Source of the DNA: Minisyncoccia bacterium
GTDB lineage: Bacteria; Patescibacteriota; Minisyncoccia; Phycocordibacterales; UBA9973
Length of the DNA: 48,210 nt
Assembly: GCA_049287045.1 (NCBI GenBank)
Contig: JBAQFC010000002.1
Coordinates: forward strand, 1-48,210
Reading direction: 5' to 3'
Both the position numbers and the translations under genes were made by a program. The notes under the pieces are model-generated. The model was not told the DNA's origin. It saw nothing but the letters and a program-made list of their open reading frames with translations, and did no database searches. Below, in pieces: positions 3,633-45,250 of this stretch. Position 1 is the stretch's first letter; each line of letters opens with the position of its first letter.

Positions 3633-3716
3633 AATTTAATATTAACTCGTTTTGATAAAAATAACTAGAAAAACAAAAAACCCACCGAAGCAGATTTTCT
3701 GCTGGTGGGTTTAAAC

Positions 3717-4367: not shown

Positions 4368-4472
4368 AGTACCACTGCTCGTAATATGATATCATAGTTT
4401 TACTTAAAAGTCAATAGCATACTCAAAAAGTAAAGTCATCTCACCTTATAGGAACAGGGATACAAACAATCT

Positions 4473-5198
4473 CTACTTCTTTTCAAGAACATATTTCATA
4501 AAACCCTTTCCTCCTTCATAAAATTCAAGACGTGATCCATTCAATTTCATAAATCCACCCCAAGCTTCCAATCTTGAACCAGTAAAAGTTCCATCATTTT
4601 TAGAAGTGAATGGTTCACAAAAAGGTTTTGTGTTCGAAGCATCTGTTGGATCTTTTAGTCTAGAATCACAATAAGAATTTTCTTTAATAGAAAGTTCAAA
4701 ACTTTTATCAGTTGAATTTAAAGTTAATTTGGAAAAAGGACCGGACGAATCCATAGAACTATATTTTTCAACTACATGCCAAGTACCTTGTTTTGAAACT
4801 AGTTTTGAAACAGAAGTATTGGTTGCAGGCACTACTGTTTTTACTGATGCCACAACTTTATTTGCACTAACACTTGAAATAGAATCAATTGGAAGTGATT
4901 TAAGTTTAAGACGAGTTTGAGTATCAAGATTACCAGTCACAGGTAACGCTAATTTTTTTTGTAATTTCTTCACAGCATTTATTGTATTTTTTCCATACTT
5001 ACCATCAGCTTTTCCGGAAAGAAAACTTTTTCCAATTAAAAAAGTTTGAAGTTCTTTCACACTATCCCCTTTAGAACTGGAGCTCAAATTCGAACTAAAA
5101 ACGTGTCCGAAGTTTTCAGCAGCTGAAATTTTTTTATAATTAATACCAAACGAAAATACTAAAATAAAAACAAATAAACTTAATGTATATTTTTTCAT
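4473..5198 (-). CDS. secreted peptidoglycan-binding domain protein
   Basis: Signal peptide, then GDSVKELQTFLIGKSFLSGKADGKYGKNTINAVKKLQKKLALPVTG, which matches the PG_binding_1 pattern. Confidence 0.7.
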   Translation of the reverse strand: MKKYTLSLFVFILVFSFGINYKKISAAENFGHVFSSNLSSSSKGDSVKELQTFLIGKSFLSGKADGKYGKNTINAVKKLQKKLALPVTGNLDTQTRLKLKSLPIDSISSVSANKVVASVKTVVPATNTSVSKLVSKQGTWHVVEKYSSMDSSGPFSKLTLNSTDKSFELSIKENSYCDSRLKDPTDASNTKPFCEPFTSKNDGTFTGSRLEAWGGFMKLNGSRLEFYEGGKGFMKYVLEKK

Positions 5199-5232
5199 GT
5201 TTATATTATACCAATATTTTTAAAAAATTATA

Positions 5233-8254: not shown

Positions 8255-8566
8255 TTGTATTTTGATTTAAGTTGTTTGCGTTATTGCTCTATAAAAACCA
8301 ACAAATGACGTCCAGAGAGCAATATACAAAACAACCAAACATACAAAAGAACTACTATTATATATGCACAATAGCATTATTATATTGAATTGTCAATTTG
8401 ATTACTCCTGAGTTCAATAAGTAAATGCGACACCTTTCGGTGTTTTAATTTTGTGTATCACGAGTTACTAAGTATAATTTTTCGCTATGCTCAAATTCTA
8501 CGTAAGTACTCGCGACCCCAGCTCGTGATTTCATCTGCTGATGAAATATCACTGCGCTTTCCACAA

Positions 8567-8594
8567 ACTAAAAATCTCCCTAAAGGGAGATTTT
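8567..8594 (-). terminator. terminator downstream of tRNA-Ala
   Basis: Minus strand reads AAAATCTCCC-TTTA-GGGAGATTTT followed by TAGTTT. Confidence 0.7.
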
Positions 8595-8605
8595 CTTAAC
8601 GTTTG

Positions 8606-8678
8606 TGGACCCTACAGGACTCGAACCTGCCACCCCCTCATTGCAAATGAGGTGCTCTACCAGATGAGCTAAGGGCCC
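8606..8678 (-). tRNA. tRNA-Ala(UGC)
   Basis: Minus strand: GGGCCCT TA GCTC ATCTGGTA GAGC A CCTCA TTTGCAA TGAGG GGGTG GCAGG TTCGAGT CCTGT AGGGTCC A. G3:U70 identity pair present. No encoded CCA; the trailer starts CA. Confidence 0.95.
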
Positions 8679-8865: not shown

Positions 8866-9258
8866 TCGGGAGTAGCTCAGCGGTAGAGCGGTCGCCTGTG
8901 GAAATTTCCTCCCTTTGGTATAATATAATTATTATGTCAGATAATAGGAAATATGCTGATAAAGCATCACGCAGCTTTCTATTGAAAAATAGATCGAAAA
9001 TGGGGTGAATTCGGGGAAACCCAAACTTGTAATGAGTGGGTAATCCCGAGCCAAGCTCTGATGAAAATCAGAGAAGGTGTAGAGACTATCTCGCAAGAGA
9101 GTAGTGTTCCAATTATTTTGGAATCCGAAGCGCCTCACTTCTAAGTTTTGCAACATTATTTTTTGTTTGCAAAATATGGAGATGATATAGTCCGTACCAT
9201 TAGTAATAATGGAGAAAACGTAAGCGATTGGTCGTAGGTTCGATCCCTACCTCCCGAG
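8866..9258 (+). tRNA. tRNA-Asn(GUU) interrupted by a group I intron (exons 8866..8899 and 9221..9258)
   Basis: 5' exon: TCGGGAG TA GCTC AGCGGTA GAGC G GTCGC CTGT. 3' exon: TAA GCGAT TGGTC GTAGG TTCGATC CCTAC CTCCCGA G. The joined anticodon loop is CTGTTAA. U1-A72 and G73 as in E. coli tRNA-Asn. Confidence 0.85.
8900..9220 (+). ncRNA. group I intron, subgroup IC3-like, no ORF
   Basis: Core blocks are nearly identical to the Azoarcus tRNA-Ile and Anabaena tRNA-Leu introns as I recall them: GGGGTGAATTCGGGGAAACCCAAAC, AATCCCGAGCCAAGC, GAAGGTGTAGAGACTA, GATATAGTCCG. The 5' exon ends in U and the intron ends in G. A candidate IGS, GCAG, pairs with exon CUGU and gives a U.G wobble at the splice site. 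Confidence 0.85.
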
Positions 9259-9273
9259 CATTTAAAATCTTTA

Positions 9274-9300
9274 GCACCCTTTTGGGTGCTTTTGATTTTT
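9274..9300 (+). terminator. terminator after tRNA-Asn
   Basis: GCACCC-TTTT-GGGTGC followed by TTTTGATTTTT. Confidence 0.75.
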
Positions 9301-9302
9301 AT

Positions 9303-9439
9303 GCTCAGGAGAGAGAGCCAACTGCTTGGCTCTCGGGTAGGGAGCGAAAAGCTTTTCTGTGTTTTTAAAAATCATAGATTTTAAAAAACTAGAAAAGGTA
9401 TACTGCGGCTGTAAGCCGAGATCACCCTACCTCCCGAGC
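9303..9439 (+). repeat. tRNA-3'-end-mirroring structured element, Asn-type, copy 1
   Basis: 5' arm GCTCAGGAG + hairpin (9312-9334) + GGGTAGGGAGCGA is the reverse complement of the tRNA-Asn 3' end (TCGATCCCTAC|CTCCCGAGC). The 3' arm CCCTACCTCCCGAGC (9425-9439) is a direct copy of that 3' end. About 80% identical to 11054..11189, with compensatory changes in hairpins. Confidence 0.8.
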
Positions 9440-9443
9440 CAGC

Positions 9444-10350: not shown

Positions 10351-10384
10351 GGCTGTTCACGTAAGTGTTCAGCCTTTTATTATT
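10351..10384 (+). terminator. terminator of the 9651..10325 gene
   Basis: GGCTGTTCAC-GTAA-GTGTTCAGCC followed by TTTTATTATTT. Confidence 0.7.
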
Positions 10385-10388
10385 TCTA

Positions 10389-10415
10389 TTCGAATGTCAT
10401 CCCAAGTTCGGAGCA
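10389..10415 (+). repeat. hairpin motif copy A (TTCGAATGTCATCCCAAGTTCGGAGCA)
   Basis: Member of a motif with 4 direct copies plus 1 inverted copy. Stem TTCGAA/GTTCGGA around a conserved loop, followed by a terminator-like hairpin ACCAT..ATGGTGTTTTT (10425-10448). Confidence 0.7.
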
Positions 10416-10453
10416 AAATTTATAACCATATTTATCAATGGTGTTTTTGCCTA

Positions 10454-10475
10454 CCAACTTGGGACGTTCGAACTT
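10454..10475 (-). repeat. hairpin motif, inverted copy
   Basis: Minus strand reads AAGTTCGAACGTCCCAAGTTGG. It forms an inverted pair with copy A across about 38 nt. Confidence 0.55.
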
Positions 10476-10952: not shown

Positions 10953-10983
10953 TGTTTAAATCTGCTTTCTATCAATGATGACT

Positions 10984-11011
10984 CTCCGAACATCATCCCA
11001 AGTTCGGAGCA
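10984..11011 (+). repeat. hairpin motif copy B (CTCCGAACATCATCCCAAGTTCGGAGCA)
   Basis: 8-bp stem CTCCGAAC/GTTCGGAG with loop ATCATCCCAA. It occupies the position that the tRNA-Asn 3' end occupies next to copy 1. Confidence 0.7.
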
Positions 11012-11024
11012 TTAAAAAATCTTA

Positions 11025-11050
11025 GCACCCTTTTGGGTGCTTTTGATTTT
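11025..11050 (+). terminator. terminator hairpin identical to the one after tRNA-Asn
   Basis: GCACCC-TTTT-GGGTGC followed by TTTTGATTTTT. Confidence 0.7.
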
Positions 11051-11053
11051 TAT

Positions 11054-11189
11054 GCTCGGGAGACAAAGCAAACTTCTTTGCTTTGGTGTAGGGAGCGAAA
11101 AGCTTTTCTGTGTTTTTGGAAATCTTTGATTTACAAAAACGAGAAAAGGTATACTGTTCCTGTAAGGAAAGATACCCTACCTACCGAGC
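11054..11189 (+). repeat. tRNA-3'-end-mirroring structured element, Asn-type, copy 2 (no adjacent tRNA)
   Basis: GCTCGGGAG + hairpin CAAAGCAAA-CTTC-TTTGCTTTG + GTGTAGGGAGCGA ... GTATACTG TTCCT-GTA-AGGAA ... CCCTACCTACCGAGC (11175-11189). Confidence 0.8.
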
Positions 11190-11425
11190 CAGATGCGTCA
11201 AAATAAAATTTGACTAGTGTATGTACTATGATATGCTATAAGCATCACTATGAAAGAGACCCTTATGCAGATTCGTCTGCATCGGGGGCTTTTTCTTTTT
11301 AGGGCTTACTTGAGAACTTATGATAATGTTCGTTTAAGAAAGTTATTTCTATATTTTTATTTCTTAATAAAATTGAACATTTGTTTTTATCTGGAGCAAT
11401 AATGCAATGAATTGACTTGTTCCCT

Positions 11426-11446
11426 CATTGTCCCAAGTTCGGAGCA
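11426..11446 (+). repeat. hairpin motif copy C (3' half: CATTGTCCCAAGTTCGGAGCA)
   Basis: Shares CCCAAGTTCGGAGCATTA with copy B and TTACAAAGAC with copy D. Followed by hairpin ACATTGA-CAGG-TCAATGT (11455-11472). Confidence 0.55.
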
Positions 11447-11457
11447 TTACAAAGACA

Positions 11458-13582: not shown

Positions 13583-13603
13583 ATTTCCCATCCAAAATAC
13601 TCA

Positions 13604-13629
13604 TTCGAACATCATCCCAAGTTCGGAGA
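13604..13629 (+). repeat. hairpin motif copy D (TTCGAACATCATCCCAAGTTCGGAGA)
   Basis: Same stem and loop as copy B. Followed by TTACAAAG and the terminator hairpin at 13643-13666. Confidence 0.7.
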
Positions 13630-13642
13630 AAATTTACAAAGA

Positions 13643-13830: not shown

Positions 13831-13837
13831 TGTGTCT

Positions 13838-14212
13838 AATGTCTTGCATCTGTAAGCCGAATTCTGTATTCCAGCCGAAGCTGAAACGATAGTCATTTGT
13901 CTAGGCCTGACATTACTATCAGGCTCAAGCGATTCTCCCCGACCGAAGCCAGAGCACGATCTTGCATAGAGGTAAGGATTTAGCCGTTTCATATTCTATA
14001 TTACTATAGAACTCATCCTATGATTACTCATAGGATGATCTTTCCCTTTCGAGAAAAATCGTCTCTGTTCGCACCTATATATTGCTATATGCGGGCGTTA
14101 CCCGCTACCATTCCCTTCCCGAAGGATTCGCTATGTTCGGACTTTCCTCCCTTCAGCTTCGCTCAGGGCAAGCCCCTAACAAAACCAAAGAGTAACTACC
14201 CAACGCAGGACA
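13838..14212 (-). ncRNA. rnpB: RNase P RNA, bacterial type A
   Basis: Minus strand contains GGGAGGAAAGTCCGAAC (P4 5' strand), GGTAACGCC, and ACAGAATTCGGCTTAC (P4 3' strand). P1 pairing is GTCCTGCGTTGG with CAGATGCAAGAC. End coordinates are good to within about 5 nt. Confidence 0.9.
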
Positions 14213-14295: not shown

Positions 14296-17200
14296 TTATT
14301 CAATAAAAACTTTTTTGGTAAGAATTGAATTCGAAGAAATAATCTTCACAAGATACAAACCTTGTGGCAAATCATTTTTCAAAATCTGAAAACTATTTCC
14401 TTCTTCCTTTATACTGCGAACAATCTGACCCAGATTATTTACAACATTTATTTCATATTTTCCATATGGTAATTCTACATGCAAAACATCCATAAAAGGA
14501 TTGGGAAACAACTTCACATCTTCATCCTTAATAGCCTCATTAACCCCAACGAAAGACTTTTCAAAAAAACATCCATCGGTACTGTACTGGAAATACATAG
14601 CATCCACATCACTTACCTCTACATTGTTAAACACAGCCGAAGTTGTGTTTTGCATTGAAGGAGTATAGACATGAGTCGTAGATCCAGAAGTTTTTAGTTT
14701 AAGACTACTACCAAAAATTCCTTGCACTCCTACTGTTTTTGTCGTTCCGGAACCAGTCACTGTAACGTTGTTTACAACAGGTACAGAGTCTACTCTAACA
14801 GACATTGATGCCGACTTTGGACAGCCATTACCATCAAGATAAGTGTAAGTTAAAGTATTAGTTCCAGCATTTGCGGTTGCCGCATTGAAGTTATTTCCTA
14901 CAAATGAAATTCCATTCGCAGAAAAAGTTCCAGGTGACGGGCTTCCAGTAAAAGTGATCGTATGATTCGTGGCCTCTTTACAAATTTCAACAATACCTAA
15001 ATTTGAAGTAATAGATACGCTCGCATTATTTGTTACTGGTGTAACGGTAACACTTGCAGTATTTATACAACCATTGATATCCGTGCCGGTAACTGTTTCT
15101 GTTAAAGAAGTATTACCAGTCGGAGTTACAACAATCGGAGATCCAGTTTGACCTCCAGTCCATGAATAAGTATTAGCTCCACTTGCAGACAAGGTTGCCG
15201 ATGTACCACTACAAACCGTAGCGTTACCAGACGTAGTAATCACAGGTAAAGGGTTCACCGTTACGATTACACTTGCTGTATCAACACAACCATTAATATC
15301 GGTAGCAGTTACAGTATAAGTTTTTGTAGTTATTGGGTTGGCAATAATGCTTCCCAAAGTAGTACTACTTAAACTTGTTGAGGGAGACCATGTGTAGGAA
15401 GAACCACCTGCACCCGTTAGGGTCGTTGATCCTCCTTTACAAAATGAACTACCTGCTACTGCAGACACTACCGGCAAAGGATTTACTGACAAAATAGTTA
15501 TAACCGTATCTTTACATCCGTTGATATCCGACACTACTGCTGAATAAATTGTAGTGACAGTTGGATTGGCATTTACGCTAAATCCAGTCGCACTACTCAG
15601 GCCAGTAACTGGAAACCAAGAGCATGAAATACCACCGATCGCTGTAAAAGTTTTTGAACCTCCAATACAAACTGAAGAATTCGCTGATACAGTACCTATT
15701 GGTGATGGATGAACAGTTATAACAACAACGTTTGAATTACTTACGCAACCATTAATATCGGTTCCAACCGCGGTATAAGAAATAGTATTGGCTGGATTAA
15801 TATTAATGGGAGATCCGATTTGACCTCCAGTCCAAGAATAAACATTTGCTCCACTTCCAGTTAAAGTAGTTGAAGTTCCAGCACAGATCGTGCCAACACT
15901 TGCAACGGCAGTAACTATCGGCAAAGCATTAACTTTAACTTTTGTAATAGCCGTATCTTTGCACCCATTCGGGTCCGTTAAAACTGCAGAATAAATTGTA
16001 GTAATAATTGGATTAGCATTTACGCTAAACCCAGAAGTACTACTCAAACCCGCAGAAGGATACCAGAAACATGAAGTTCCACCAGAGGCAACTAAACTTT
16101 TTGTTGACCCTATACAAATAGAGTCATTTGGAGTTACTGTTGCAACTGGTAATGGATTTACGGTAATAACAACACTTGCAGTGTTAACACAAGTATTCGC
16201 GTCTGTTCCCGTTACTATATAAGTAGTGGTACTAGGAGGGCTCGTATTGAATGAAGATCCAGTTTGACCTGTACTCCAAGTATACGTACTTGCCCCGCCA
16301 GCAGTTAAGGTAGATGTAGCTCCAGCACATATTGTACTAGGACTTGCAAGTACAGTGACTGAAGGTAGAGGGTTAACAGTAACTAAAATATTATTACCAC
16401 TTACACAGCCATTTATATCAGTTCCAACTACACCATAAGAAGTGGTATTAATAGGAGTTATACTGAATGAAGCTGTTGTCTGACCTCCTCCCCAAGAATA
16501 AGTACTTGCTCCACCAGCAGTTAAAGTAGTTGCAGTACCGTTACAAATTGTATTGGCACTTGCGGTTACAGTAATTAAAGGTGTGGGATTAACCGTAACA
16601 GTAACACTTGCATTATTTGTACAATTATTAGCATTTGTTCCAACCACGCTATAAGTAGTGGTTGTATTTGGAACAACAAAATATGAAAATCCAGTTTGAC
16701 CTGAATTCCATATATACGTACTTGCTCCACCAGCAGTTAAAGTAGTTGAAGTGCCATTACAAACGATAAGAGCACTTGCGGTTACAGTAACTATTGGCAA
16801 CGGATTAACCGTAATCGTAACACTTGCAGTGTTAACACAAGTATTCGCATCTGTTCCCGTTACTATATAAGTAGTGGTACTAGGAGGACTCGTATTGAAT
16901 GAAGATCCAGTTTGACCTGTACTCCAAGTATACGTACTTGCCCCGCCAGCAGTTAAGGTAGATGTAGATCCAGCACAGATTGTGTTCGGACTTGCAACTG
17001 CGGTGACTGAAGGTAGAGGGTTAACGACAATTGTAAAGTTAGTATTCTTTGCACAACCAAAGACGTCTGTTCCTGTTACATTGTAAGCAACAGTACTAAC
17101 CGGAGTTACATTTATTGAAGTTAAGGTTTCACCCCCGCCCCAAAGATAAGTATTTGCTCCAGTGACATTTAAAGTGGTTGTAGCACCAACACAGATTGTA

Positions 17201-18291
17201 TTGGCACTTGCAGTTACAAGAACTGTAGGCACAGGATACACCGCAATATTAATAGTGTTTGTGTCTTTACACCCATTAACATCTGTTGCGATCACAGTAT
17301 AAGTAGAAGCACCACTAATAGGACTTGCAGTTACATTTGATCCTGTCGTACTACTCAAAGTACTACCCGGAGACCATAAATAAGAAGTTCCACCAGTGGC
17401 AATTAAAGGACTTGAACCACCAGCACAAACTAAATTGCTTTGTGTGAGGGTTCCGATTGGTAATGAATTAACGGTTACTGTTGTTATGTTTGTGTCTTTA
17501 CATCCGTTCGCGTCAGTTTCAATCACTGTGTAAGTTGTTGTACTAAGAGGGTTCGCATTTACGCTTGCCAAAGTAGTACTATTCAAACCAGTTGAAGGAG
17601 ACCATGCAAATAAAGTACCACCAGTCGCTGTTAAGCTTTTTAATCCTCCAAAACAAATTGAAGAATTAGCTGTCACAGTTCCAATTGGTAATGCATTTAC
17701 AGTTAAAACGAATGCGGATGCACTTTCAGTACATCCAATAATTGTTACATCAACAGTATAACTTCCGGAAGTATTTGCTACATAAGTCGAAGCGGTTGCC
17801 CCGGCAATGATTACATTATTTCTTTTCCATTGATAAGTAGCTCCTAAAGTAGAAGCAGTCAATGTGTCCAAAATTCCTGCACAAATACTATCATTTGTAG
17901 ATGATGAGATAACGGGAGTAGGAAAACATGATGGAGTTGTAAAAGTTCCCACCGCACTACTTCCAGATGCAGCTCCAGGCAAAACTTTTGCTTTGTAACT
18001 GTAAGTGGTAGAAGGTGTTAATCCTGTCAAAGTAATTGCAATAGTCGTGTCAGCAACGGGATTCATTAAAGTTGCTACTGAACAATTCGAATTGAAATTA
18101 CCTCCTGTACCGTGACAAAACTGACGAAAGCCAACAGCTATTAAAGCATTGTAATGGCACCAGGCTATGGCGCTGGTTGGCGTGACGTTCGTGACTGAAT
18201 CTACTTTTACATAATTCAGATTCACATTTTGGGCATTTACTGCCCCGAAAGCAATAACAATTGCAATCATAATTAGGATGATTTTTTTCAT
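14296..18291 (-). CDS. giant surface adhesin-like protein: about 14 Ig-like Cys-bracketed repeats plus T9SS-type (Por_Secre_tail) C-terminal domain
   Basis: Signal peptide. Repeats follow the pattern C.G....LTA.G...Y.W.......V.P..TT.Y.V.GTD.NGC......V.VNPLP. C-terminus is LFPNPFMDVLHVELPYGKYEINVVNNLGQIVRSIKEEGNSFQILKNDLPQGLYLVKIISSNSILTKKVFIE. Confidence 0.85.
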   Translation of the reverse strand: MKKIILIMIAIVIAFGAVNAQNVNLNYVKVDSVTNVTPTSAIAWCHYNALIAVGFRQFCHGTGGNFNSNCSVATLMNPVADTTIAITLTGLTPSTTYSYKAKVLPGAASGSSAVGTFTTPSCFPTPVISSSTNDSICAGILDTLTASTLGATYQWKRNNVIIAGATASTYVANTSGSYTVDVTIIGCTESASAFVLTVNALPIGTVTANSSICFGGLKSLTATGGTLFAWSPSTGLNSTTLASVNANPLSTTTYTVIETDANGCKDTNITTVTVNSLPIGTLTQSNLVCAGGSSPLIATGGTSYLWSPGSTLSSTTGSNVTASPISGASTYTVIATDVNGCKDTNTINIAVYPVPTVLVTASANTICVGATTTLNVTGANTYLWGGGETLTSINVTPVSTVAYNVTGTDVFGCAKNTNFTIVVNPLPSVTAVASPNTICAGSTSTLTAGGASTYTWSTGQTGSSFNTSPPSTTTYIVTGTDANTCVNTASVTITVNPLPIVTVTASALIVCNGTSTTLTAGGASTYIWNSGQTGFSYFVVPNTTTTYSVVGTNANNCTNNASVTVTVNPTPLITVTASANTICNGTATTLTAGGASTYSWGGGQTTASFSITPINTTSYGVVGTDINGCVSGNNILVTVNPLPSVTVLASPSTICAGATSTLTAGGASTYTWSTGQTGSSFNTSPPSTTTYIVTGTDANTCVNTASVVITVNPLPVATVTPNDSICIGSTKSLVASGGTSCFWYPSAGLSSTSGFSVNANPIITTIYSAVLTDPNGCKDTAITKVKVNALPIVTAVASVGTICAGTSTTLTGSGANVYSWTGGQIGSPININPANTISYTAVGTDINGCVSNSNVVVITVHPSPIGTVSANSSVCIGGSKTFTAIGGISCSWFPVTGLSSATGFSVNANPTVTTIYSAVVSDINGCKDTVITILSVNPLPVVSAVAGSSFCKGGSTTLTGAGGSSYTWSPSTSLSSTTLGSIIANPITTKTYTVTATDINGCVDTASVIVTVNPLPVITTSGNATVCSGTSATLSASGANTYSWTGGQTGSPIVVTPTGNTSLTETVTGTDINGCINTASVTVTPVTNNASVSITSNLGIVEICKEATNHTITFTGSPSPGTFSANGISFVGNNFNAATANAGTNTLTYTYLDGNGCPKSASMSVRVDSVPVVNNVTVTGSGTTKTVGVQGIFGSSLKLKTSGSTTHVYTPSMQNTTSAVFNNVEVSDVDAMYFQYSTDGCFFEKSFVGVNEAIKDEDVKLFPNPFMDVLHVELPYGKYEINVVNNLGQIVRSIKEEGNSFQILKNDLPQGLYLVKIISSNSILTKKVFIE

Positions 18292-18527
18292 GGTTTGGGT
18301 TTTTTTAAAAAAGTTAAATTATTTATTTATTTATTTATTTTTTTATTAAACTAGTTCAACTGAACCAGTTACTGTGCCCTAAACATGAAATAATCAAGTA
18401 TCGGAAACAGCGTTTCAAACGCCTATACTAAAAAAGGTGTCCAAAATGCTGTTTCCGACTGAAGATATGAAGATTTTTCAAAGACCAAATACAGGGATAT
18501 ATTACACTAATGTACCCTATTTGTCAA
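18292..18527 (-). promoter_or_regulatory. promoter plus conserved structured 5' leader of about 200 nt, adhesin leader copy 1
   Basis: Minus strand: TTGACA (18527-18522), 17-nt spacer, TAATAT (18504-18499). Long hairpin TCGGAAACAGC...GCTGTTTCCGA (18401-18458). Inverted repeat GTTCA-AC-TGAAC (18354-18365). (AAAT)n tract next to the start codon. Homologous to 21900..22137. Confidence 0.7.
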
Positions 18528-18665: not shown

Positions 18666-20396
18666 ATGAAAAATTATATGAAAAATATCATAAAAAAAAT
18701 AGCATTCGTTTTTGTCCTTGTCGGAATTTTTAGCACTGGAGCAAGTGTCTCTTTTGCCTCTTCTGCCCCGACTATTACTTCTGGAACAGCCACAAATATT
18801 ACAACAACTTCAGCTGACCTAAATGGTTTAGTAAACCCAAACGGAGATAATACTACGGCATGGTTTGAAACTCCTTCAGATGGACCTTTTCAAAGTCAAA
18901 ATCTAGGAAGTGGAAGTTCTGATGTATCAATGCTTGCGTATAATTTAACAGGACTAACACCTGGCACACTTTATACTTTCAAAATTGTAGCTGGTAATTC
19001 TAACGGCCCTACTGACAGTGGTTTTATTTTCTCATTTACGACAGCTGTGGCCCCTGCCCCAACTATCGTCTCAGCAACAACTACAAATATTACAACAACT
19101 TCTGCCGACTTGAATGGTTCTATCAATCCAAACGGAGATAATACTACAGCATGGTTTGAAACTCCTTCTGATGGACCTTTTCAAAGTCAAAATCTAGGAA
19201 GTGGAAGTTCTGATGTATCAATGCTTGCATATTCCCTAACAGGACTAACTCCAAGTACAACTTACACTTTTAGAATTATTGCTGGTAATACAAACGGTGG
19301 CCCGGTAACAGGAGGATGGGTTTCATTTACGACAGCAACACCTCCTATTCTACCTTCTCCTACTCTTGTTTCAACAACAACCACAAACATAACAACCACC
19401 TCAGTAGACCTAAACGGAGTTGTTAACCCGAACGGGTATGCTACAACTGCTTGGTTTGAAACTCCTTCAGGTGGACCTTTTCAAAACCAAAATCTTGGTA
19501 ACGGAAGTTCTGATGTTACATTGCTTCCCTATTCCCTAACAGGACTAACTCCAAGCACAACTTACACTTTTAGAATTATCACAGGAAATACCAATGGCTC
19601 AATAACCGGTGGTTGGATTTCATTTACAACTGCAGCAATTCCAAATGGTGGTGGAGGTGGCGGTGGAGGTGGTGGCGGCGGTGGAGGTGGAGGAGGTGGA
19701 GGTGGCGGTGGAGCGACAATGACCCCTTCAGTTATTACTCAAAATGCATCAACTACTACAAGCAACTCAACAAAACTTAATGGTTCAATCAATCCAAATG
19801 GATACACTACAACTGCTTGGTTTGAATATGGAACTTCAAGTACCTTAGCAACTTCAACTGAAACGACTCACACTCCTCAAGGAGCAGCGAATGCAGCTTC
19901 AGCTTTGACACAAAATATTACTGGTCTTACTCCAAACACGATTTATTATTACCGTGTCGTTGCCAATAATTCCAACGGTACTGTTAAAGGAAATATTGTC
20001 TCTCTTCAAACAACACCAACTATTCCTGTCGTAGTTGTTCCTGTTTCAATAACAAATACTTCAGACCCTTTAAAAGAGACAATTACTACTGTAAAAACAA
20101 AAGTTGTTGCTAAAACAACAAAGACAAACGGTCAGGATGGAAAAGTTAAAATTATAGACGAAGGTATATCAATTGTAAGTGGAGCAAGTCCTTCACCAAA
20201 AACTTCTGTTACTACAGATCCAAACTTACAGAAAACAGATATTTCAAACCCTGCAGAGAAAGACACAGGATTGGAAGCTAACTCAATCTTTAGTATAAGA
20301 TCACTACCTCGCTTGATAGGCTGGATTGCATTAATACTTGCCATCTTCGGTCTAATTATTGTCGGCAGAAGAAAATACAAAAACTCACAACAGTAA
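18666..20396 (+). CDS. surface protein with four FN3-like repeats, a 23-residue poly-Gly linker and a C-terminal TM anchor
   Basis: Signal peptide. Repeats read NITTTSADLNG.(V/I)NPNG..TTAWFE...LTGLTP.T.YTF(K/R)I. G23 tract. C-terminal LIGWIALILAIFGLIIVGRRKYK. Confidence 0.85.
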   Translation: MKNYMKNIIKKIAFVFVLVGIFSTGASVSFASSAPTITSGTATNITTTSADLNGLVNPNGDNTTAWFETPSDGPFQSQNLGSGSSDVSMLAYNLTGLTPGTLYTFKIVAGNSNGPTDSGFIFSFTTAVAPAPTIVSATTTNITTTSADLNGSINPNGDNTTAWFETPSDGPFQSQNLGSGSSDVSMLAYSLTGLTPSTTYTFRIIAGNTNGGPVTGGWVSFTTATPPILPSPTLVSTTTTNITTTSVDLNGVVNPNGYATTAWFETPSGGPFQNQNLGNGSSDVTLLPYSLTGLTPSTTYTFRIITGNTNGSITGGWISFTTAAIPNGGGGGGGGGGGGGGGGGGGGGGATMTPSVITQNASTTTSNSTKLNGSINPNGYTTTAWFEYGTSSTLATSTETTHTPQGAANAASALTQNITGLTPNTIYYYRVVANNSNGTVKGNIVSLQTTPTIPVVVVPVSITNTSDPLKETITTVKTKVVAKTTKTNGQDGKVKIIDEGISIVSGASPSPKTSVTTDPNLQKTDISNPAEKDTGLEANSIFSIRSLPRLIGWIALILAIFGLIIVGRRKYKNSQQ

Positions 20397-20522: not shown

Positions 20523-21899
20523 CTATTGCATTACTAATTTCTTTGTTATAGAAGAATTTGTTTTTTCAGAAGATATTTTTGCAAAATATACTCCTGAAGG
20601 TAAACCATCTCTTTCTATTTTAAAGTTATTTCCTTCTTCAGTTGTGATACTGCGAACTGTTTGTCCTAAACAATTTACAATGTCAATTTGATATTTTCCA
20701 TTTGGAGTTTCCAAATTTAACATATCCACAACAGGATTAGGGAACATCCTTATATCTCCATCCTTTACAACTTCACCAACACCTACAAAACTCTGTTCAA
20801 TAAAACATTCTGAGTTGTATTTTAAGTACATAACCTCAGTGCCGTTATACGATACATTGTTGAATATCGCCAATGAAGAGTTTTGCATCGAAGCAACATA
20901 TGTATGGGTTGTTGACCCTACAATCTCCATTTGCAATGGACCAACAAGTGGACCATAAACTTTTACTGTTTTTGTCGCTCCAGAGCCGGTAACTATTACA
21001 CTGTTTACTTCTGGTAATGAGTCAACTTGGATATTAACCATTGTTGAATCTTTGCAACCAAAATTGTCAGTACATGTATAGGTTACGACACTCGTCCCAG
21101 CATTTAAAGTAGACACGTTTACGGAATTACCAATAAAGATTATTCCGTTGCATGAAAGTACTCCGCCAGATGGAACCAAAGTGAAAGCTATTGTTGGAGT
21201 CATAGACACCTTACAAGCTTCAGCAGTACCAGACGTTGGTACAGCAGATACTGGTGTAGTGTTTGTTTTCACAGTAATAGCAACAGTTGTTGTCGTTGTG
21301 CAAGTTCCACTCACAGTTACAGTATAAGTTGTTGAAACAGTAGGACTTGCAACAGGATTCCCGATATTTGGATTACTTAATCCAGTTGTCGGCAACCAAG
21401 CATATGAAGTTCCACCAGTAGCACTCAACGTTGTTGAGCTTCCAAAACAAATTGTAGCTGAAGCATTTGAAACAGCAGCACCACAAGTAGTAAATACTAA
21501 GGGTGAACCATCTTTAAACCAAACAGGACTTCCGCCCTGATAAAGAATAATGTGTGGTACCACTTTGTAGATATGACCTGCAGTTAACCCAGTTAATAAA
21601 TAGGCAACGCCTAAATTAACGGAGTCTCCAGCAACCCCGGTATAGTTCACATATTGGCTTCCCAATATGATATTACCGTTTGTTGAATCAATTTTTTCAA
21701 AAAATAATTCAACATGGTTGTTTGTATTCCAAAGGGTTATTCCACCCACTGATTGGATAGTCCAACCAAAAGAAATACTGGCTTGCGTCTGTGTCACACT
21801 AACAAATGAAGACGAAACGTTTCCACTGAAAGTACTTGCGAAAATTGAGCTCAATCCAATTACATTGGAGAGCAACAAAATTAGGAATGATTTTTTCAT
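20523..21899 (-). CDS. surface adhesin-like protein with T9SS-type C-terminal domain; paralog of the C-terminal about 250 aa of 14296..18291
   Basis: Signal peptide, one Cys-bracketed Ig-like repeat. C-terminus is MFPNPVVDMLNLETPNGKYQIDIVNCLGQTVRSITTEEGNNFKIERDGLPSGVYFAKISSEKTNSSITKKLVMQ. Confidence 0.85.
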   Translation of the reverse strand: MKKSFLILLLSNVIGLSSIFASTFSGNVSSSFVSVTQTQASISFGWTIQSVGGITLWNTNNHVELFFEKIDSTNGNIILGSQYVNYTGVAGDSVNLGVAYLLTGLTAGHIYKVVPHIILYQGGSPVWFKDGSPLVFTTCGAAVSNASATICFGSSTTLSATGGTSYAWLPTTGLSNPNIGNPVASPTVSTTYTVTVSGTCTTTTTVAITVKTNTTPVSAVPTSGTAEACKVSMTPTIAFTLVPSGGVLSCNGIIFIGNSVNVSTLNAGTSVVTYTCTDNFGCKDSTMVNIQVDSLPEVNSVIVTGSGATKTVKVYGPLVGPLQMEIVGSTTHTYVASMQNSSLAIFNNVSYNGTEVMYLKYNSECFIEQSFVGVGEVVKDGDIRMFPNPVVDMLNLETPNGKYQIDIVNCLGQTVRSITTEEGNNFKIERDGLPSGVYFAKISSEKTNSSITKKLVMQ

Positions 21900-22137
21900 A
21901 GCTTTGATTTGGTTTTTTAAAAAGTTAAATTATTTTTTTTATTAATTTATTTTTTTATTGAACTAGTCCAACTGAACCAGTACTGAATCAAAACATGAAT
22001 AATCATGTGTCGGAAACAGTGTTTTAAACTTCTCTGCAAGAGAGACGTCCAAAATACTGTTCCCGACTGAAGATATAAAGATTTTTCAAGGTACTATTAC
22101 TGTACAAAGTATAGCACAATCAACCCATACTTGTCAA
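21900..22137 (-). promoter_or_regulatory. promoter plus conserved structured 5' leader, adhesin leader copy 2
   Basis: Minus strand: TTGACA (22137-22132), 18-nt spacer, TATACT (22113-22108). Hairpin TCGGGAACAGT...ACTGTTTCCGA (22010-22067) carries a compensatory C-G to U-A change relative to copy 1. Confidence 0.7.
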
Positions 22138-38842: not shown

Positions 38843-39253
38843 ATGATGAAAAAAGATAAATATAAATTGAATGGTTGTAAAGTTAAAGCAAAACGCTCAA
38901 GTGCAGGCTTGGGTCTTTTTGCAATGGAACCAATACCTAAAGGTACTTGTATTATAGAATACATAGGCAGAGTCATATCTAAAGAAGAAGAATATAAAAG
39001 TAAAAGTCTATATCTCTTTGAATTAAATTCAAGAAAGACGATTGATGGAAGAGATCGATCAAATACCGCTCGTTATGTGAATCATTCTTGCAAGCCAAAT
39101 GCTGAAGCAGAAATATGGAAAAACCAAATATTTTTTCTAGCTCGTAAAAACATCAAAGAAGGTGAAGAAATAACTTTCGACTATGGAAAAGAATACATAG
39201 ATGAACATATAAAACCCAAAGGTTGTCGTTGTGGTAAATGTTCAACTAAATAA
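38843..39253 (+). CDS. SET-domain protein-lysine methyltransferase
   Basis: NHSCKPN, GEEITFDYG, and a post-SET CRCGKC. Confidence 0.8.
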   Translation: MMKKDKYKLNGCKVKAKRSSAGLGLFAMEPIPKGTCIIEYIGRVISKEEEYKSKSLYLFELNSRKTIDGRDRSNTARYVNHSCKPNAEAEIWKNQIFFLARKNIKEGEEITFDYGKEYIDEHIKPKGCRCGKCSTK

Positions 39254-39264
39254 ATTAAAAATAA

Positions 39265-39520
39265 TTGATGGGGCTTTCCTTACAGGAACAGTATACAATC
39301 GTGCGGCTGATGGGCTTGGTCACAAATATTTCCTCGCCGTCGCTCAGAAATTTCGCGACCCCATAAAAATAAAACTGCTTTGATTTTTATCTGATACGAA
39401 GTAATTGTCTGTATTTTGCTTGCAAAATAGACAATAGGGGCGAACTTGTCTACTGACAAAACATCGTTCCGTCCGTCAGCACCCAACGAAATGTCTCACA
39501 GACATTTCTTCAACCGCGCA
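39265..39520 (-). repeat. tRNA-3'-end-mirroring structured element, Asp-type
   Basis: Minus strand: GCGCGGTTG + hairpin (AAGAAATGTCT-GTG-AGACATTTCGTT) + GGGTGCTGAC. This is the reverse complement of the tRNA-Asp 3' end GTCAGCACCCAT|CAGCCGCGC. A direct copy GCCCATCAGCCGCAC lies at 39315-39301. GTATACTG TTCCT-GTA-AGGAA (39298-39276) is identical to Asn-type copy 2. Confidence 0.75.
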
Positions 39521-39554
39521 AAGAAAAAACGCCCTATTAGGCGTTTTTTCTTTT
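39521..39554 (-). terminator. terminator after the tRNA cluster
   Basis: Minus strand: AAAGAAAAAACGCC-TAATAG-GGCGTTTTTTCTTT. Confidence 0.8.
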
Positions 39555-39558
39555 GATG

Positions 39559-39630
39559 CGCGGCTGATGGGTGCTGACCCCACGGCCTCCCACGTGACAG
39601 GCGGGTGCTCTACCGTTGAGCTACAGCCGC
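39559..39630 (-). tRNA. tRNA-Asp(GUC) with a non-canonical T-loop
   Basis: GCGGCTG TA GCTC AACGGTA GAGC A CCCGC CTGTCAC GTGGG AGGCC GTGGG GTCAGCA CCCAT CAGCCGC G. The T-loop is GTCAGCA where TTCRANN is expected. No encoded CCA. Confidence 0.8.
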
Positions 39631-39676
39631 ATCCCCTATAATCTACCACAAATGGAAAAATCTTCCAATCTGCTTG

Positions 39677-39750
39677 TGTCGGTGGCAGGACTTGCACCTG
39701 CGACCTTGGCTTTATGAGTGCCATGCTCTAACTACCTGAGCTACACCGAC
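39677..39750 (-). tRNA. elongator tRNA with CAU anticodon (Met, or Ile2 if lysidine-modified)
   Basis: GTCGGTG TA GCTC AGGTAGTTA GAGC A TGGCA CTCATAA AGCCA AGGTC GCAGG TGCAAGT CCTGC CACCGAC A. G1-C72 is paired, so this is not an initiator. The T-loop has G at position 55. Confidence 0.8.
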
Positions 39751-39844
39751 ATGTGTGTATTTTTTTAAAAAACAAGTACAAACTAACCTTCGACCTGTTT
39801 TAATCGACAATATAGACATAAAAGGCATGTCACTTGCCGAATTG

Positions 39845-39915
39845 TTGCGGGAGGCCGAATCGAACGGCCGTCTCAAGGTTATGAGCCTTGCGAGATGCCT
39901 CTTCTCTATCCCGCT
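39845..39915 (-). tRNA. initiator-type tRNA-fMet(CAU)
   Basis: AGCGGGA TA GAGA AGAGGCA TCTC G CAAGG CTCATAA CCTTG AGAC GGCCG TTCGATT CGGCC TCCCGCA A. Positions 1 and 72 are mismatched, and the 3' end CCCGCAAC matches E. coli tRNA-fMet. Confidence 0.8.
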
Positions 39916-45134: not shown

Positions 45135-45250
45135 AAAAAATTAAGTAAAGTAGCTTTTAAAAAGCATTGCACAGGCCGACGGGCCGAGCATAGCAAATTT
45201 TCAGCAGAAAATTATGTGCGGTTTTTAAAAGCTACTTTACTTAATTTTTT
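45135..45250. repeat. perfect 29-bp inverted repeats flanking a 58-bp GC-richer core (MITE-like or rod-shaped RNA)
   Basis: AAAAAATTAAGTAAAGTAGCTTTTAAAAA (45135-45163) is the exact reverse complement of 45222-45250. The core contains GGCC-GACG-GGCC and AATTTTC-AGCA-GAAAATT hairpins. Confidence 0.7.

Follow-up and report, generated by a model that had tools for sequence, protein, structure and literature searches.

The closest described counterparts of the sequences considered here are the integrative elements that target tRNA genes, which insert between direct copies of a segment running from the T-loop to past the 3' end, leave the tRNA intact, and see their older copies shifted downstream by later insertions. 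Williams reportedly defined, in 2002, a T-loop sublocation class of tRNA-gene integration, in which attL and attR duplicate the tRNA 3' segment. REP/BIME sequences and REPINs, mobilised by RAYTs (Y1 transposases of the IS200/IS605 type), are short, multi-copy, non-coding hairpins that lie in 3' intergenic regions in mosaic or tandem arrangement, have no transposase in cis, and keep their structure whilst the stem sequence varies. Integron attC sites and the attP(+) of CTX phage combine imperfect inverted repeats with a structured spacer and an extrahelical stem feature, conserve structure over sequence, and occur in arrays of units split by repeated sites; the guides of IS200/IS605, the IS110 bridge RNA and H/ACA RNAs set a target-complementary segment beside or around a hairpin; and bidirectional intrinsic terminators stand behind tRNA operons. 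The sequences described here share each of these traits, with a scaffold of ~170 nt and, in the first ~30 nt after most tRNAs, just such a terminator, whose A/T runs belong to the larger palindrome of the element, and form what is apparently an undescribed family of small hairpin-rich elements of the CPR. The literature, literal motifs included, yielded nothing relevant to the element family; the Rfam 15 models that exceed their gathering thresholds in the window (the whole 48-kb stretch of DNA that was analysed) are those of tRNA, RNase P and a group I intron and no others, and a search of the element regions at E <= 10 gave noise only, far under gathering scores.

An earlier note on this DNA had described an element downstream of a Met-Met-Asp tRNA cluster that mirrors tRNA-Asp. 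This element is real, and every part described was located in the sequence. It runs from a terminator through an inverted tRNA-Asp 3' end with a hairpin, a direct copy and a 23-nt module to a partial second copy, all on the minus strand and facing a convergent gene:

39844-39915, minus strand: tRNA-Met(CAT), called by ARAGORN and Rfam
39676-39750, minus strand: tRNA-Met(CAT), called by ARAGORN and Rfam
39558-39630, minus strand: tRNA-Asp(GTC), last of the Met-Met-Asp cluster (ARAGORN; Rfam tRNA model, 57.7 bits)
39524-39549, minus strand: bidirectional intrinsic-terminator-like hairpin AAAAAACGCC-TAATA-GGGCGTTTTTT, with A-run, GC-hairpin and T-run, read in the sequence
39511-39519, minus strand: 5' arm GCGCGGTTG, reverse complement of tRNA CAGCCGCGC with 1 mismatch (8/9)
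39488-39508, minus strand: hairpin hpA, GAAATGTCT-GTG-AGACATTTC, 9 bp with loop GTG in the context CUGUGAG (sequence and fold)
39475-39486, minus strand: T arm TTGGGTGCTGAC, reverse complement of GTCAGCACCCAT with 1 mismatch (11/12)
39363-39474, minus strand: region of three filler hairpins (~39445-39461, 39405-39434 and 39363-39390; fold z = -3.46)
39318-39362, minus strand: D2 module GGGGTCGCGAAATTTCTGAGCGACGGCGAGGAAATATTTGTGACC, a long hairpin with a GTGACC end, from comparison with locus L008
39301-39315, minus strand: direct copy 1 of the tRNA-Asp 3' end, GCCCATCAGCCGCAC, by sequence match
39274-39296, minus strand: module C, GTATACTGTTCCTGTAAGGAAAG, made up of GTATACTG, a 4-bp stem TTCC/GGAA with loop TGTAA, and AG
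39266-39273, minus strand: direct copy 2, truncated, CCCCATCA, read in the sequence
38843-39253, plus strand: convergent SET-domain gene, whose stop codon is reached just after direct copy 2

The sequence that is mirrored is the final ~21 nt of tRNA-Asp, a tRNA with an unusual T-loop, GTCAGCA. Inverted, the 5' arm corresponds to the acceptor 3' strand, the discriminator and 1 nt more, and the T arm to the T-loop and the 3' strand of the T-stem; the whole GTCAGCA loop is included, so that the complement spans the aberrant T-loop just as the earlier note had it. The inverted copy is interrupted by hpA at the T-stem/acceptor boundary (positions 65/66). Could all of this be long terminator palindromes and a chance 23-nt match, and so nothing special? 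The first part is indeed a genuine terminator, not called by a simple scanner and plain when the sequence is read, and its A/T runs lengthen the palindrome. However, the palindrome reaches ~24 nt into the tRNA and is followed by modules that no terminator needs, and the 23-mer and both arms stand far above chance: the T arm is matched twice in the window against 0.08 expected, a stretch of direct copy 1 (CCCATCAGCCGCAC, 39301-39314) is identical to tRNA-Asp at 13/14 positions where 0.04 such matches are expected, and the 23-mer of module C at 39274-39296 is identical to 11149-11171 (0 expected) and exact in ~40 other loci. With at least 143 homologous elements elsewhere, and modules and arms conserved downstream of the terminator across them, an intrinsic terminator only was rejected; permutation tests and covariation (below) rule out the chance account, whose probability is close to nil.

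Three further elements lie in the same window, which thus holds one for each of its three tRNA transcription units and one displaced copy:

~8430-8604, minus strand, boundaries approximate: element behind tRNA-Ala(TGC) (8605-8678, minus strand), compared by eye
9259-9442, plus strand: Asn1, a canonical member directly after tRNA-Asn exon 2 (9221-9258), with terminator (9273-9290), 5' arm (9302-9311), hpA, T arm, core and direct copy (9425-9442, with CCA)
11002-11192, plus strand: Asn2, a canonical member whose arms are of the Asn type, lying 1.7 kb beyond tRNA-Asn

Because it is interrupted by a group I intron, the tRNA-Asn(GTT) escaped ARAGORN. The core of Asn1 reads CGAAAAGC-hpB-GGTATACTG-hpC; Asn2 is marked by the repeat D10 (84% identity) and ends in a direct copy at 11175-11192, and two ORFs lie between Asn1 and Asn2. 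Both of these copies, announced in the earlier note, are borne out by a family profile trained without the window, which matches them with nhmmer at 9296-9438 (E = 2.8e-27) and 11047-11191 (E = 7.9e-32). In the Ala element, a terminator is followed by the tRNA end in inverted form (GTTTGTGGA), a hairpin with loop CAGCAG, and a D2-like module, GGGGTCGCGAG...CTCGTGATAC. Fold z-scores of the Asp and Asn elements range from -3.5 to -4.2.

How far do the Asp and Asn copies share an architecture, as had been claimed? The 23-nt module is common to them, whereas the order differs, with the direct copy ahead of module C at the Asp locus, and the Asp copy has no CGAAAAGC-hpB core. The family profile matches the Asp copy in the 23-nt module only (E = 9e-6, nhmmer), and sequence homology with the Asn copies is confined there. 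The earlier note had reckoned that its case would fall if the similarity were limited to the GTATACTG block and the remainder were ordinary long terminator palindromes: the first half is what we found, and the second fails because the remainder is built from other, recurrent conserved module types, seen again at loci L008, L147, L097 and L113 and in the flank of the window's tRNA-Ala. D2 is ~85% identical to the L008 module CGAAAATTCCGTAGCGACGTCGAGAAATTATTTGTAACC, with related modules at the other four places, hpA differs from that of L008 by two compensatory pair changes, and L008 has a longer CCCCATCAGCC at the position equivalent to the truncated direct copy 2. The three filler hairpins between the arms and D2 are lineage-specific and not conserved with L008. 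The Asp copy is a mosaic variant, partly decayed.

Beyond the window, two scans of public data gave at least 146 matches with a complementary hpC stem, and at least 143 were retained as family members; the first scan used a 15-base pattern and returned mostly chance matches, from which the complementary-stem filter then separated the family. All identifiable sources are Patescibacteria. The elements are non-coding, 150-300 bp in size with a core of ~95 nt, and always lie on the strand of their tRNA. Their canonical order is tRNA, usually a terminator, the inverted end of the tRNA gene, core, and that tRNA segment once more in direct orientation, and terminators equivalent to that at 39524-39549 separate the tRNA from the inverted arm in most members. 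The inverted copy covers the last ~20-25 nt of the tRNA gene (T-loop through discriminator) together with a few bases of the trailer, and is usually split by hpA at the T-stem/acceptor boundary. The conserved core is CGAAAAGC-hpB-GUAUACUG-hpC(UGUAA)-AGA, in which hpB varies highly in length, and CGAAAAGCTTTT is at least 90% conserved though absent from the search pattern. Across CPR phyla, no fewer than 22 different tRNAs have this core in their 3' flank; some elements stand in tandem or mosaic arrays, as in REP/BIME-type multi-copy extragenic hairpins, and the order of modules is permuted.

Occurrence is patchy: for one tRNA type, the element is present in some genomes and absent in others. 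The orthologous gatCA-216aa-Met-Met-Asp locus L243, whose ~60% protein identity to the window locus is too low for insertion junctions to be placed, has a plain terminator without the element, and short contigs with the flanking SET gene stop at the element. CPR/Patescibacteria genomes are small (~1 Mb) and highly streamlined; that they retain several ~170-nt non-coding copies, with a core nearly invariant across phylum-level lineages, gives some weight to an element that is abundant, easily modelled, and missing from Rfam and from annotation pipelines.

The earlier note had held that the modules are conserved whilst the arms match whichever tRNA is adjacent, and had proposed scanning the flanks of tRNAs in related genomes for such arms. 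This holds in 60 loci with 22 anticodons: the mean longest exact matches between arms and tRNA are 5.25, 6.97 and 12.2 nt, against 0.68, 1.30 and 1.39 nt when permuted. In a genome with two copies, the cores are close to identical (0.95-0.97) and the arms only 0.6-0.7 identical, the between-locus background having a median of 0.72. The inverted arm and the direct copy, mutually inverted, bracket the core, which invites comparison with MITEs, yet the arms reproduce the end of the adjacent tRNA and change from copy to copy, unlike the family-specific TIRs of MITEs.

What is copied is the gene. The inverted arm matches the tRNA gene and its trailer and not CCA, and follows T-loop positions 58-60 in reverse complement, at the aberrant Asp T-loop too; direct copies are 12-25 nt long in 37/60 loci and often extend 3-8 nt beyond the tRNA end into the trailer, several of those 12-25-nt copies among them. 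In these matches, the arms act as copies made from the DNA of the tRNA gene. An origin of the inverted arm from mature tRNA or cDNA, as in a retroviral primer-binding site, was rejected, the arm matching trailer bases instead of CCA. Some direct copies have CCA where the current tRNA gene has none, a CCA that is ambiguous because some tRNA-Asn genes encode it. Changes fell in the inverted arm only 54 times, in the direct only 30 times, and were compensatory once: the two arms decay independently, without selection on arm-arm pairing. A second tRNA gene carrying an insertion in its T-loop was set aside, since the element has that loop as its reverse complement; so were tRNA-like RNAs (tmRNA, YrlA, viral TLS), as the T-loop is reverse-complemented (TGCTGAC for Asp) and the pairing runs past the discriminator, and the Rfam tmRNA and YrlA models have no match in the window or element regions.

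The hairpins, on the other hand, are held together by covariation, and the junction motifs between them are near-invariant. The stem of hpA has at least 6 bp in 92/101 cases, with 72 distinct stem sequences and all 9 pairs covarying; that of hpC, in module C, covaries across 27 variants; hpB covaries likewise. Paired cells make up 90.9% against 75.3% in shuffles and 40-56% in slid controls, and double-sided changes number 303 against 112, a value reached in 0/500 shuffles. The hairpins are under selection.

We give a probability of a little under one half (~0.45) to the reading that these are non-autonomous hairpin-module repeats, specific to tRNA 3' flanks, which are installed or refreshed by DNA-level copying of their target. 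They would be repeats in the sense of REP/BIME, MITEs or attC, and the option of an att-carrying mini-element, raised in the earlier note, comes near to this. Selection would maintain the hairpins and junction motifs, most simply as the marks by which a structure-specific recombinase or transposase, supplied in trans and working on folded single strands, would know its sites; the arms would have been copied from the DNA of the target tRNA gene, at installation or in a later refreshing by conversion, and would not form a co-evolving guide helix. The family, its anatomy, the match of arms to tRNA, copying at the level of the gene, the covariation of the hairpins, the closeness of cores in one genome, the patchy distribution and the later displacement by islands are shown by the data, whereas it is inferred that the elements move, that a single-stranded intermediate exists and that an enzyme acts on it; against mobility, no filled/empty allele pair has been caught between close strains, and recent spread could be mimicked by gene conversion among cores. 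We know of no transposition chemistry that yields both a direct and an inverted copy of a ~20 bp target. If the element is mobile, this pairing of copies would be a mode of target matching undescribed for REP, MITE or att-type elements, and tRNA 3' flanks would be hot spots which influence how CPR genomes are rearranged and at which assemblies break.

Each described class departs from the family in some respect. Unlike REP/BIME sequences and REPINs, the elements have arms copied from the adjacent tRNA, no GTAG-type head, long near-invariant unpaired junction motifs and a distribution confined to the CPR, and no RAYT was identified. Unlike attC and attP(+), they have no R''/R' core consensus and no adjacent IntI or Xer-dif context, and their stem is the end of a tRNA gene; where integron attC R''/R' sites (RYYYAAC...GTTRRRY) were looked for, the arms proved to be tRNA ends, with no integrase nearby.

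Or could the elements act as RNA? A functional RNA would also be compatible with the near-invariant single-stranded motifs of 8-13 nt across very deep CPR lineages and with the strictly shared orientation of element and tRNA, and a cis-encoded, structured, guide-type RNA, one guide per tRNA, is possible though somewhat unlikely. Its core, a three-way junction of P1, hpB and hpC, would recruit a shared factor, the bipartite antisense arms around hpA would pair with the 3' half of the tRNA, pre-tRNA or gene, and the downstream direct copy would be an internal decoy. Beside the three covarying hairpins and the fold z-scores (-3.5 to -4.2), 24 nt of antisense complementarity follow each tRNA; hpB bears, read by eye, a tandem-GA motif (UGA-stem-GAA) of a kind bound by proteins; hpA, by reasoning, takes the position of the departing D and anticodon arms in the sense orientation only; and the sense strand folds better, with more G.U pairs (mean fold energy -40.5 against -36.2 kcal/mol for antisense), a leaning of the whole-element folds that is partly due to composition. 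In hpC, however, an unbiased count of 5 G.U against 8 A.C pairs favours neither strand. A terminator usually stands between tRNA and element, and there is no consistent promoter; the arms are complementary to gene and trailer and not to the mature CCA end, their mismatches are without wobble bias (13 sense-compatible, 8 antisense-compatible, 17 other) and without compensation between arms, and acceptor-side pairing is lost in about half of the copies; no Rfam family matches, and multi-copy, patchy, tandem and mosaic occurrence also speaks against the RNA. If it were one nonetheless, a family of tRNA-specific guides would exist in bacteria.

A programmable guide, as the earlier note had imagined, thus gains no direct support: gene and trailer are copied, the arms diverge uncompensated, and no nuclease or recombinase lies in cis. 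Unlike the guides of IS200/IS605, IS110 and H/ACA, the arms (9 + 12 nt) are contiguous on the target, both complementary to the same strand and without sign of guide selection, and no transposase is adjacent. The H/ACA pocket (two unpaired target nt) and the ACA box are absent, the arms abutting or overlapping by 1-2 nt at 65/66, and the setting of an IS110 bridge RNA, omega-RNA or PATE is missing in that no DEDD or TnpA/TnpB gene is adjacent. Hammerhead core, group II domain V, Xer dif and the H/ACA pocket gave no fit by eye. A programmable recombination site or guide that mirrors the tRNA is, in our judgement, an unlikely reading; here a structure-specific enzyme acting in trans would recognise the core of the folded element and either recombine this mimic with the tRNA gene or bring a factor to the tRNA. 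In such a folded single strand, DNA or RNA, the inverted arm and direct copy would rebuild the acceptor/T-arm helix, hpA would emerge at the site of the D and anticodon arms, and a new tRNA target would need only the re-copying of ~20 nt. If true, this would be a new, sequence-programmable choice of target by a protein-less element, in the most reduced of bacterial genomes.

Should we instead see in these elements the scars of ordinary integrase islands, with the direct copies as displaced tRNA 3' ends (attR) and the rest as island remnants? A direct repeat from T-loop to past the 3' end, found at 37/60 loci and in the window at 39301-39315, 9425-9442 and 11175-11192, is the classical signature of tRNA integration; large-serine-recombinase islands do sit at these tRNA 3' ends (L227 at tRNA-His, L245 at the orthologous tRNA-Asp); at L175, L156 and the window's Asn1/Asn2 pair, the element is separated from the tRNA by cargo ORFs; and the CCA of some direct copies would find a source. 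However, unlike tRNA-targeted integrative elements, these have a size of 150-300 bp, no integrase or recombinase inside or beside them, and one ~95-nt core for at least 22 tRNAs across CPR phyla, on which independent scars would not converge. The extra inverted target copy, split by a conserved hairpin, is left unexplained, and the L245 island lacks the modules and repeats the tRNA end in neither orientation, for which reason serine-recombinase attP was also rejected as the source of the mirror. We consider island scars quite improbable. What the islands have done is displace elements at a later time: an argument that solo copies prove transposition was dropped, later insertions having pushed these copies away from their tRNA. 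A phage origin was dropped because viral contigs gave no match.

The non-autonomous repeat reading would call for an enzyme. The earlier note had proposed a search for a recombinase or nuclease gene family that co-occurs with the element, and none is linked in cis: recombinases and transposases are not enriched within 3.5 kb (the commonest neighbour family is seen at 10 of ~140 loci), a Pfam search of the genes next to the window's elements gave no integrase or recombinase, clustering of neighbouring proteins gave no partner gene, and no Y1 transposase was noticed among the neighbouring ORF clusters. Neither neighbouring ORFs nor window Pfam placed a DEDD transposase or TnpA/TnpB family next to elements, and no autonomous transposon sharing the element ends was seen in 240 loci and the window.

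Finally, the element could be a cassette of promoter and 5' leader riding on tRNA terminators, with GGTATACT as -10 box and hpC as a 5' stabiliser hairpin, which we hold to be very improbable. TATACT agrees with TATAAT at 5/6 positions, one promoter-like match (11126-11155) uses this -10 candidate, and the gene downstream of the element is co-oriented in 67/88 loci at a median gap of 116 nt. However, promoter-like matches are at chance level, no -35 box can lie at a fixed distance because hpB varies widely in length, the arms that match the tRNA are left unexplained, and 24% of elements face a convergent gene, the Asp copy among them. Among the genes around the elements, small GIY-YIG-like ORFs occur in 7 loci and HNH-like ones in 4 loci, as seen from sequence motif alone.

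Behind the Met-Met-Asp tRNA cluster, on the minus strand, lies a hairpin-rich stretch, here the Asp element, whose parts are listed in transcriptional order.

The Met-Met-Asp tRNA cluster and the Asp element
39844-39915, minus: tRNA-Met(CAT)
39676-39750, minus: a second tRNA-Met(CAT)
39558-39630, minus: tRNA-Asp(GTC)
39524-39549, minus: terminator 3' of tRNA-Asp (A-run, GC hairpin, T-run)
39511-39519, minus: first short block, GCGCGGTTG
39488-39508, minus: 9-bp hairpin
39475-39486, minus: second short block, TTGGGTGCTGAC
about 110 nt between TTGGGTGCTGAC and D2, minus: more hairpins
39318-39362, minus: D2, a 45-nt long-hairpin module
39301-39315, minus: GCCCATCAGCCGCAC, direct copy of the tRNA end; GATT comes next
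39274-39296, minus: 23-nt module, GTATACTG-TTCC-TGTAA-GGAA-AG
39266-39273, minus: last block, CCCCATCA

Together, GCGCGGTTG and TTGGGTGCTGAC are the reverse complement of the tRNA-Asp 3' end, with one mismatch per block; this inverted copy spans the T-loop GTCAGCA, the T-stem 3' strand, the acceptor 3' strand, the discriminator and one further base, and is interrupted exactly at the T-stem/acceptor boundary. The features described in the earlier note are thus present at these coordinates, and every one tested is well above chance in the window: a 12-mer of the T arm has 2 matches against 0.08 expected, while the chance expectation is 0.04 for the direct copy and 0 for the 23-mer. Folding of the region against shuffled sequence gave z = -3.5. 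A convergent SET-domain gene ends at 39253. The T-loop of this tRNA-Asp is itself aberrant, GGGG-TCAGCA-CCC replacing GG-TTCRANN-CC both in the window (39567-39578) and in another locus, L245 (3195-3206), and the same loop is implied for the Nomurabacteria locus L008 by its inverted arm (~240-255); a relative, L243, has a normal TTCAATT T-loop in tRNA-Asp. The aberrant loop is therefore a real lineage-specific feature and not an error.

The canonical members in the window, Asn1 and Asn2, are associated with a tRNA-Asn(GTT) that ARAGORN did not call there. At 8866-9258 (plus), this gene is split within the anticodon loop, between CTGT and TAA, by a group I intron of ~320 nt (Rfam match 8910-9213, 68.6 bits), with exons placed by reading the sequence at 8866-8899 and 9221-9258; an intron-split tRNA-Asn followed by an element also occurs in L010 (Saccharibacteria) and L162. 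Directly 3' of the tRNA, Asn1 runs from a terminator through TGCTCAGGAG, the reverse complement of CTCCCGAGCA, to a hairpin, GGGTAGGGAGCGAAAAGC, a long AU hairpin, GGTATACTG-CGGC-TGTAA-GCCG-AGA and finally CACCCTACCTCCCGAGCCAG. Asn2 (11007-11192) is 84% identical, with two ORFs in between. Both fold much better than shuffled sequence (z = -4.2 and -4.0), and both are found by a profile HMM trained without the window (E = 3e-27 for Asn1, 8e-32 for Asn2). The same HMM matches the Asp element only in its 23-nt module (E = 9e-6), and blastn concurs. The observation of the earlier note holds, and its interpretation stands in part. Its view that the Asp copy has the architecture of the Asn copies, with arms retargeted to tRNA-Asp, does not fit: the two kinds are related, but the Asp copy is a mosaic.

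Another small hairpin repeat, CTCCGAAC-ATCATCCCAA-GTTCGGAG(CA), has four plus-strand copies (10379-10415, 10975-11011, 11426-11453 and 13594-13630), one adjoining the left end of Asn2 and one having an inverted partner at ~10445-10475. This may be a repeat family of its own or a tRNA-3'-end-like sequence that has decayed.

Across the family, the consensus begins with the tRNA, usually a bidirectional terminator, the 5' (acceptor) arm, a first hairpin (hpA, with loops mostly AACUGCUU or CUGGGAG), GUG, the T arm and (A/U)NCGAAAAGC, continues with a second hairpin (hpB, CUUUUS ... UGA-stem-GAA ... SAAAAG) and GUAUACUG, and ends with a third (hpC, a 4-bp stem with loop UGUAA), AGA(U/A)(U/A) and the direct copy, which comprises the T-stem and acceptor 3' strands of the tRNA. 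The motif CGAAAAGCUUUU is at least 90% conserved though absent from the search pattern. A first scan of GTDB genomes with a loose pattern gave mostly chance hits, from which 26 with a complementary stem and extended similarity were kept; all of those with a named source are Patescibacteria (Paceibacterota, Nomurabacteria, Saccharibacteria). A tighter 20-base pattern gave at least 120 matches in metagenome contigs. Modules with a complementary hpC stem number at least 146, or at least 143 once three chance hits are dropped, and at least 111 of these family members are unique canonical elements. No matching family was found in Rfam 15, nothing relevant in the literature searched, including by literal motifs, and no match in a viral collection.

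The key claim, that the arms match the adjacent tRNA, is confirmed across loci. A same-strand ARAGORN tRNA precedes 66 of the 120 modules whose upstream sequence is long enough; these tRNAs end 83-360 nt before the module (median 127) and cover 22 anticodons. Among the 60 canonical elements that have a called tRNA, the longest exact match to the element's own tRNA averaged 5.25 nt for the inverted acceptor arm, 6.97 nt for the inverted T arm and 12.2 nt for the direct copy, against 0.68, 1.30 and 1.39 nt when tRNAs were permuted between loci; the highest single-permutation means (1.45, 2.25 and 2.24 nt) lie far below. The acceptor arm matches at 7/9 positions or better in 43 of the 60, and perfectly in 22.

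Such arms could belong to a functional cis-encoded RNA addressing its neighbouring tRNA by bipartite antisense pairing, and the invariant junctions, the strict co-orientation with the tRNA and the tRNA-like position of hpA all speak for this main rival, to which we give appreciable but clearly minority weight, considering that terminators intervene between tRNA and element. Moreover, copying is at the level of the gene and not of the CCA: the direct repeat often runs 3-8 nt past the tRNA into the trailer, and the inverted arm complements gene and trailer (e.g. ATGCTC for gene GAGCAT), leaving CCA unmatched. The segment adjoining the T arm tracks T-loop positions 58-60 in reverse complement (AAU, AUU, ACU or GAU before CGAA), and in the Asp element covers the full aberrant T-loop; the inverted arm is therefore a true inversion and does not derive from a degenerate tRNA whose 5' strands are in sense orientation. 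Arm decay, moreover, is uncompensated: over 387 positions aligned with the tRNA, 54 differences are confined to the inverted arm and 30 to the direct copy, with one mutually compensating change. Inverted-arm mismatches have no bias towards wobble pairs (13 sense-compatible, 8 antisense-compatible, 17 other). Acceptor-side pairing is lost in about half of the copies, and a short T-stem-like helix of at least 5 bp is kept in 83 of 101. Given the trailer copying, the lack of wobble bias and the one-sided changes, the arms look like DNA copies of the tRNA gene, later decaying or now and then refreshed, and not like an evolving helix.

It is the hairpins that selection maintains. In a 90-sequence alignment, 90.9% of cells are paired in the structure of hpA, hpB base and hpC, against 75.3% in 500 shuffles and 40-56% in slid controls, and 303 cells are changed on both sides against 112 in shuffles, no shuffle reaching either value; hpC had been partly pre-selected by the complementary-stem filter, hpA and hpB had not. 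All 9 hpA pairs covary, with 72 distinct stems among 92 elements. An unfiltered count of hpC pairs (467 Watson-Crick, 5 G.U, 8 A.C) favours neither strand; whole-element folds lean towards the sense strand (-40.5 vs -36.2 kcal/mol antisense; G.U pairs 274 vs 101), partly because that strand has a G excess. Single-strand folding is selected; the folded molecule may be RNA or ssDNA, of one strand or the other. Ordinary palindromes explain less and are scarcely credible.

The genomics are repeat-like, which also weighs against the RNA reading. Where two copies on one contig follow different tRNAs, their cores are 0.97 (L206) and 0.95 (L234) identical and their arm regions 0.60-0.70, while for the background between loci the median is 0.72 and the 95th percentile 0.85. 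Tandem duplicates occur in L221, and mosaic arrays, in which modules C (the 23-nt hairpin module with an hpC-type stem), C', D1 and D2 each precede another direct copy, in L002, L084, L072, L130, L147, L008 and the Asp element of the window; the last two share the arm, D2 and an hpA that differs by two compensatory changes, in permuted module order. For one tRNA type, some genomes carry the element and others a plain terminator. All three tRNA transcription units of the window (Ala, Asn, Met-Met-Asp) have an element behind them, in addition to the displaced Asn2. The one behind tRNA-Ala(TGC), at about 8430-8604 (minus) and absent from the earlier note, consists of a terminator, the inverted copy GTTTGTGGA, a hairpin with loop CAGCAG and a D2-like module, GGGGTCGCGAG...CTCGTGATAC. 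Short public contigs with an identical SET-domain protein (L241, L242) terminate at the element or within it, their ends lying ~46 and 138 nt beyond the SET gene. This is what a repeat should show, and it suggests that repetition of the sequence makes assemblies break there.

'Solo' copies do not represent transpositions, since a decayed tRNA 3' remnant still flanks them on the left, and what parts them from the live tRNA is later insertion (an ORF in L175, 3 kb in L156, a 9.5-kb recombinase island in L227); the Asn1-cargo-Asn2 arrangement of the window is of the same displaced kind. Core modules also lie away from tRNA ends (L084 3160-3365, L072 7440-7630, L130 1330-1520), so the family is not strictly dependent on tRNA 3' ends. 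In L084, the modules come after a gene for a protein and are flanked by three copies of a 27-28-nt hairpin-plus-GCAAGACC repeat; in L072, a C' module is followed by a copy of the variable-loop/T-arm 5' part of the tRNA-Glu located downstream.

We consider that a non-autonomous repeat element built of hairpin modules, specific to tRNA 3' flanks and presumably mobile, fits best, with a probability of roughly 0.45. A putative trans-acting, structure-specific enzyme would recognise the element by its conserved hairpins and junction motifs; the arms are copies of the target tRNA gene end, and the element might move via a single-stranded intermediate. No protein family is enriched beside the elements: the commonest occurs in 10 of ~140 loci, and no recombinase is among them. 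Classical island scars explain less and are very unlikely, and a promoter cassette, which also explains less, is less probable again. At the orthologous gatC-gatA-216aa-Met-Met-Asp locus, L243 has a terminator only, then tRNA-Cys, and L245 has a ~4-kb island (3146-7300) integrated at the 3' end of tRNA-Asp, with a large serine recombinase and no mirrored sequence. That recombinase has Resolvase, Recombinase and Zn_ribbon_recom domains on record, and a DUF3800 protein accompanies it. Judged from sequence, L227 (2858-12430) holds an island with a large serine recombinase at a tRNA-His 3' end, apparently carrying a DNA methyltransferase and an ATPase; in both islands, the 3' ends of the recombinase gene and of the tRNA overlap, the two lying on opposite strands.

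In its way of working, the element comes closest to a REP/BIME element or an attC-type folded site that also carries tRNA-integration direct repeats. However, it has the direct-repeat signature of tRNA-targeted integration without an integrase, and lacks the attC consensus of integrons, the RAYT and REP head of REP/BIMEs, an adjacent IS110 or IS200 gene, the pocket or box of H/ACA guide RNAs, and the sense T-loop or free CCA end of tRNA-like RNAs; it is a member of none of these systems. As far as we could find, no described element joins one invariant core to both an inverted and a direct copy of the adjacent tRNA end. A 'programmable guide' is a rather unlikely possibility, not a result.

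Elsewhere in the window, an RNase P RNA (bacterial class A; 13837-14204, minus) scores 102.9 bits against an Rfam gathering threshold of 100, which fits a divergent CPR RNase P. Large ORFs of tandem 216-nt and ~295-nt repeat domains lie at 14296-18291 (minus), 18666-20396 (plus) and 20523-21899 (minus), with a GGTGG-rich run at 19635-19717 within this stretch and a 69-nt AT-rich repeat upstream of two of them (18301-18369, 21913-21981). A perfect 29-nt AT-rich inverted repeat occupies 45135-45163 and 45222-45250, with 58 nt between its arms.
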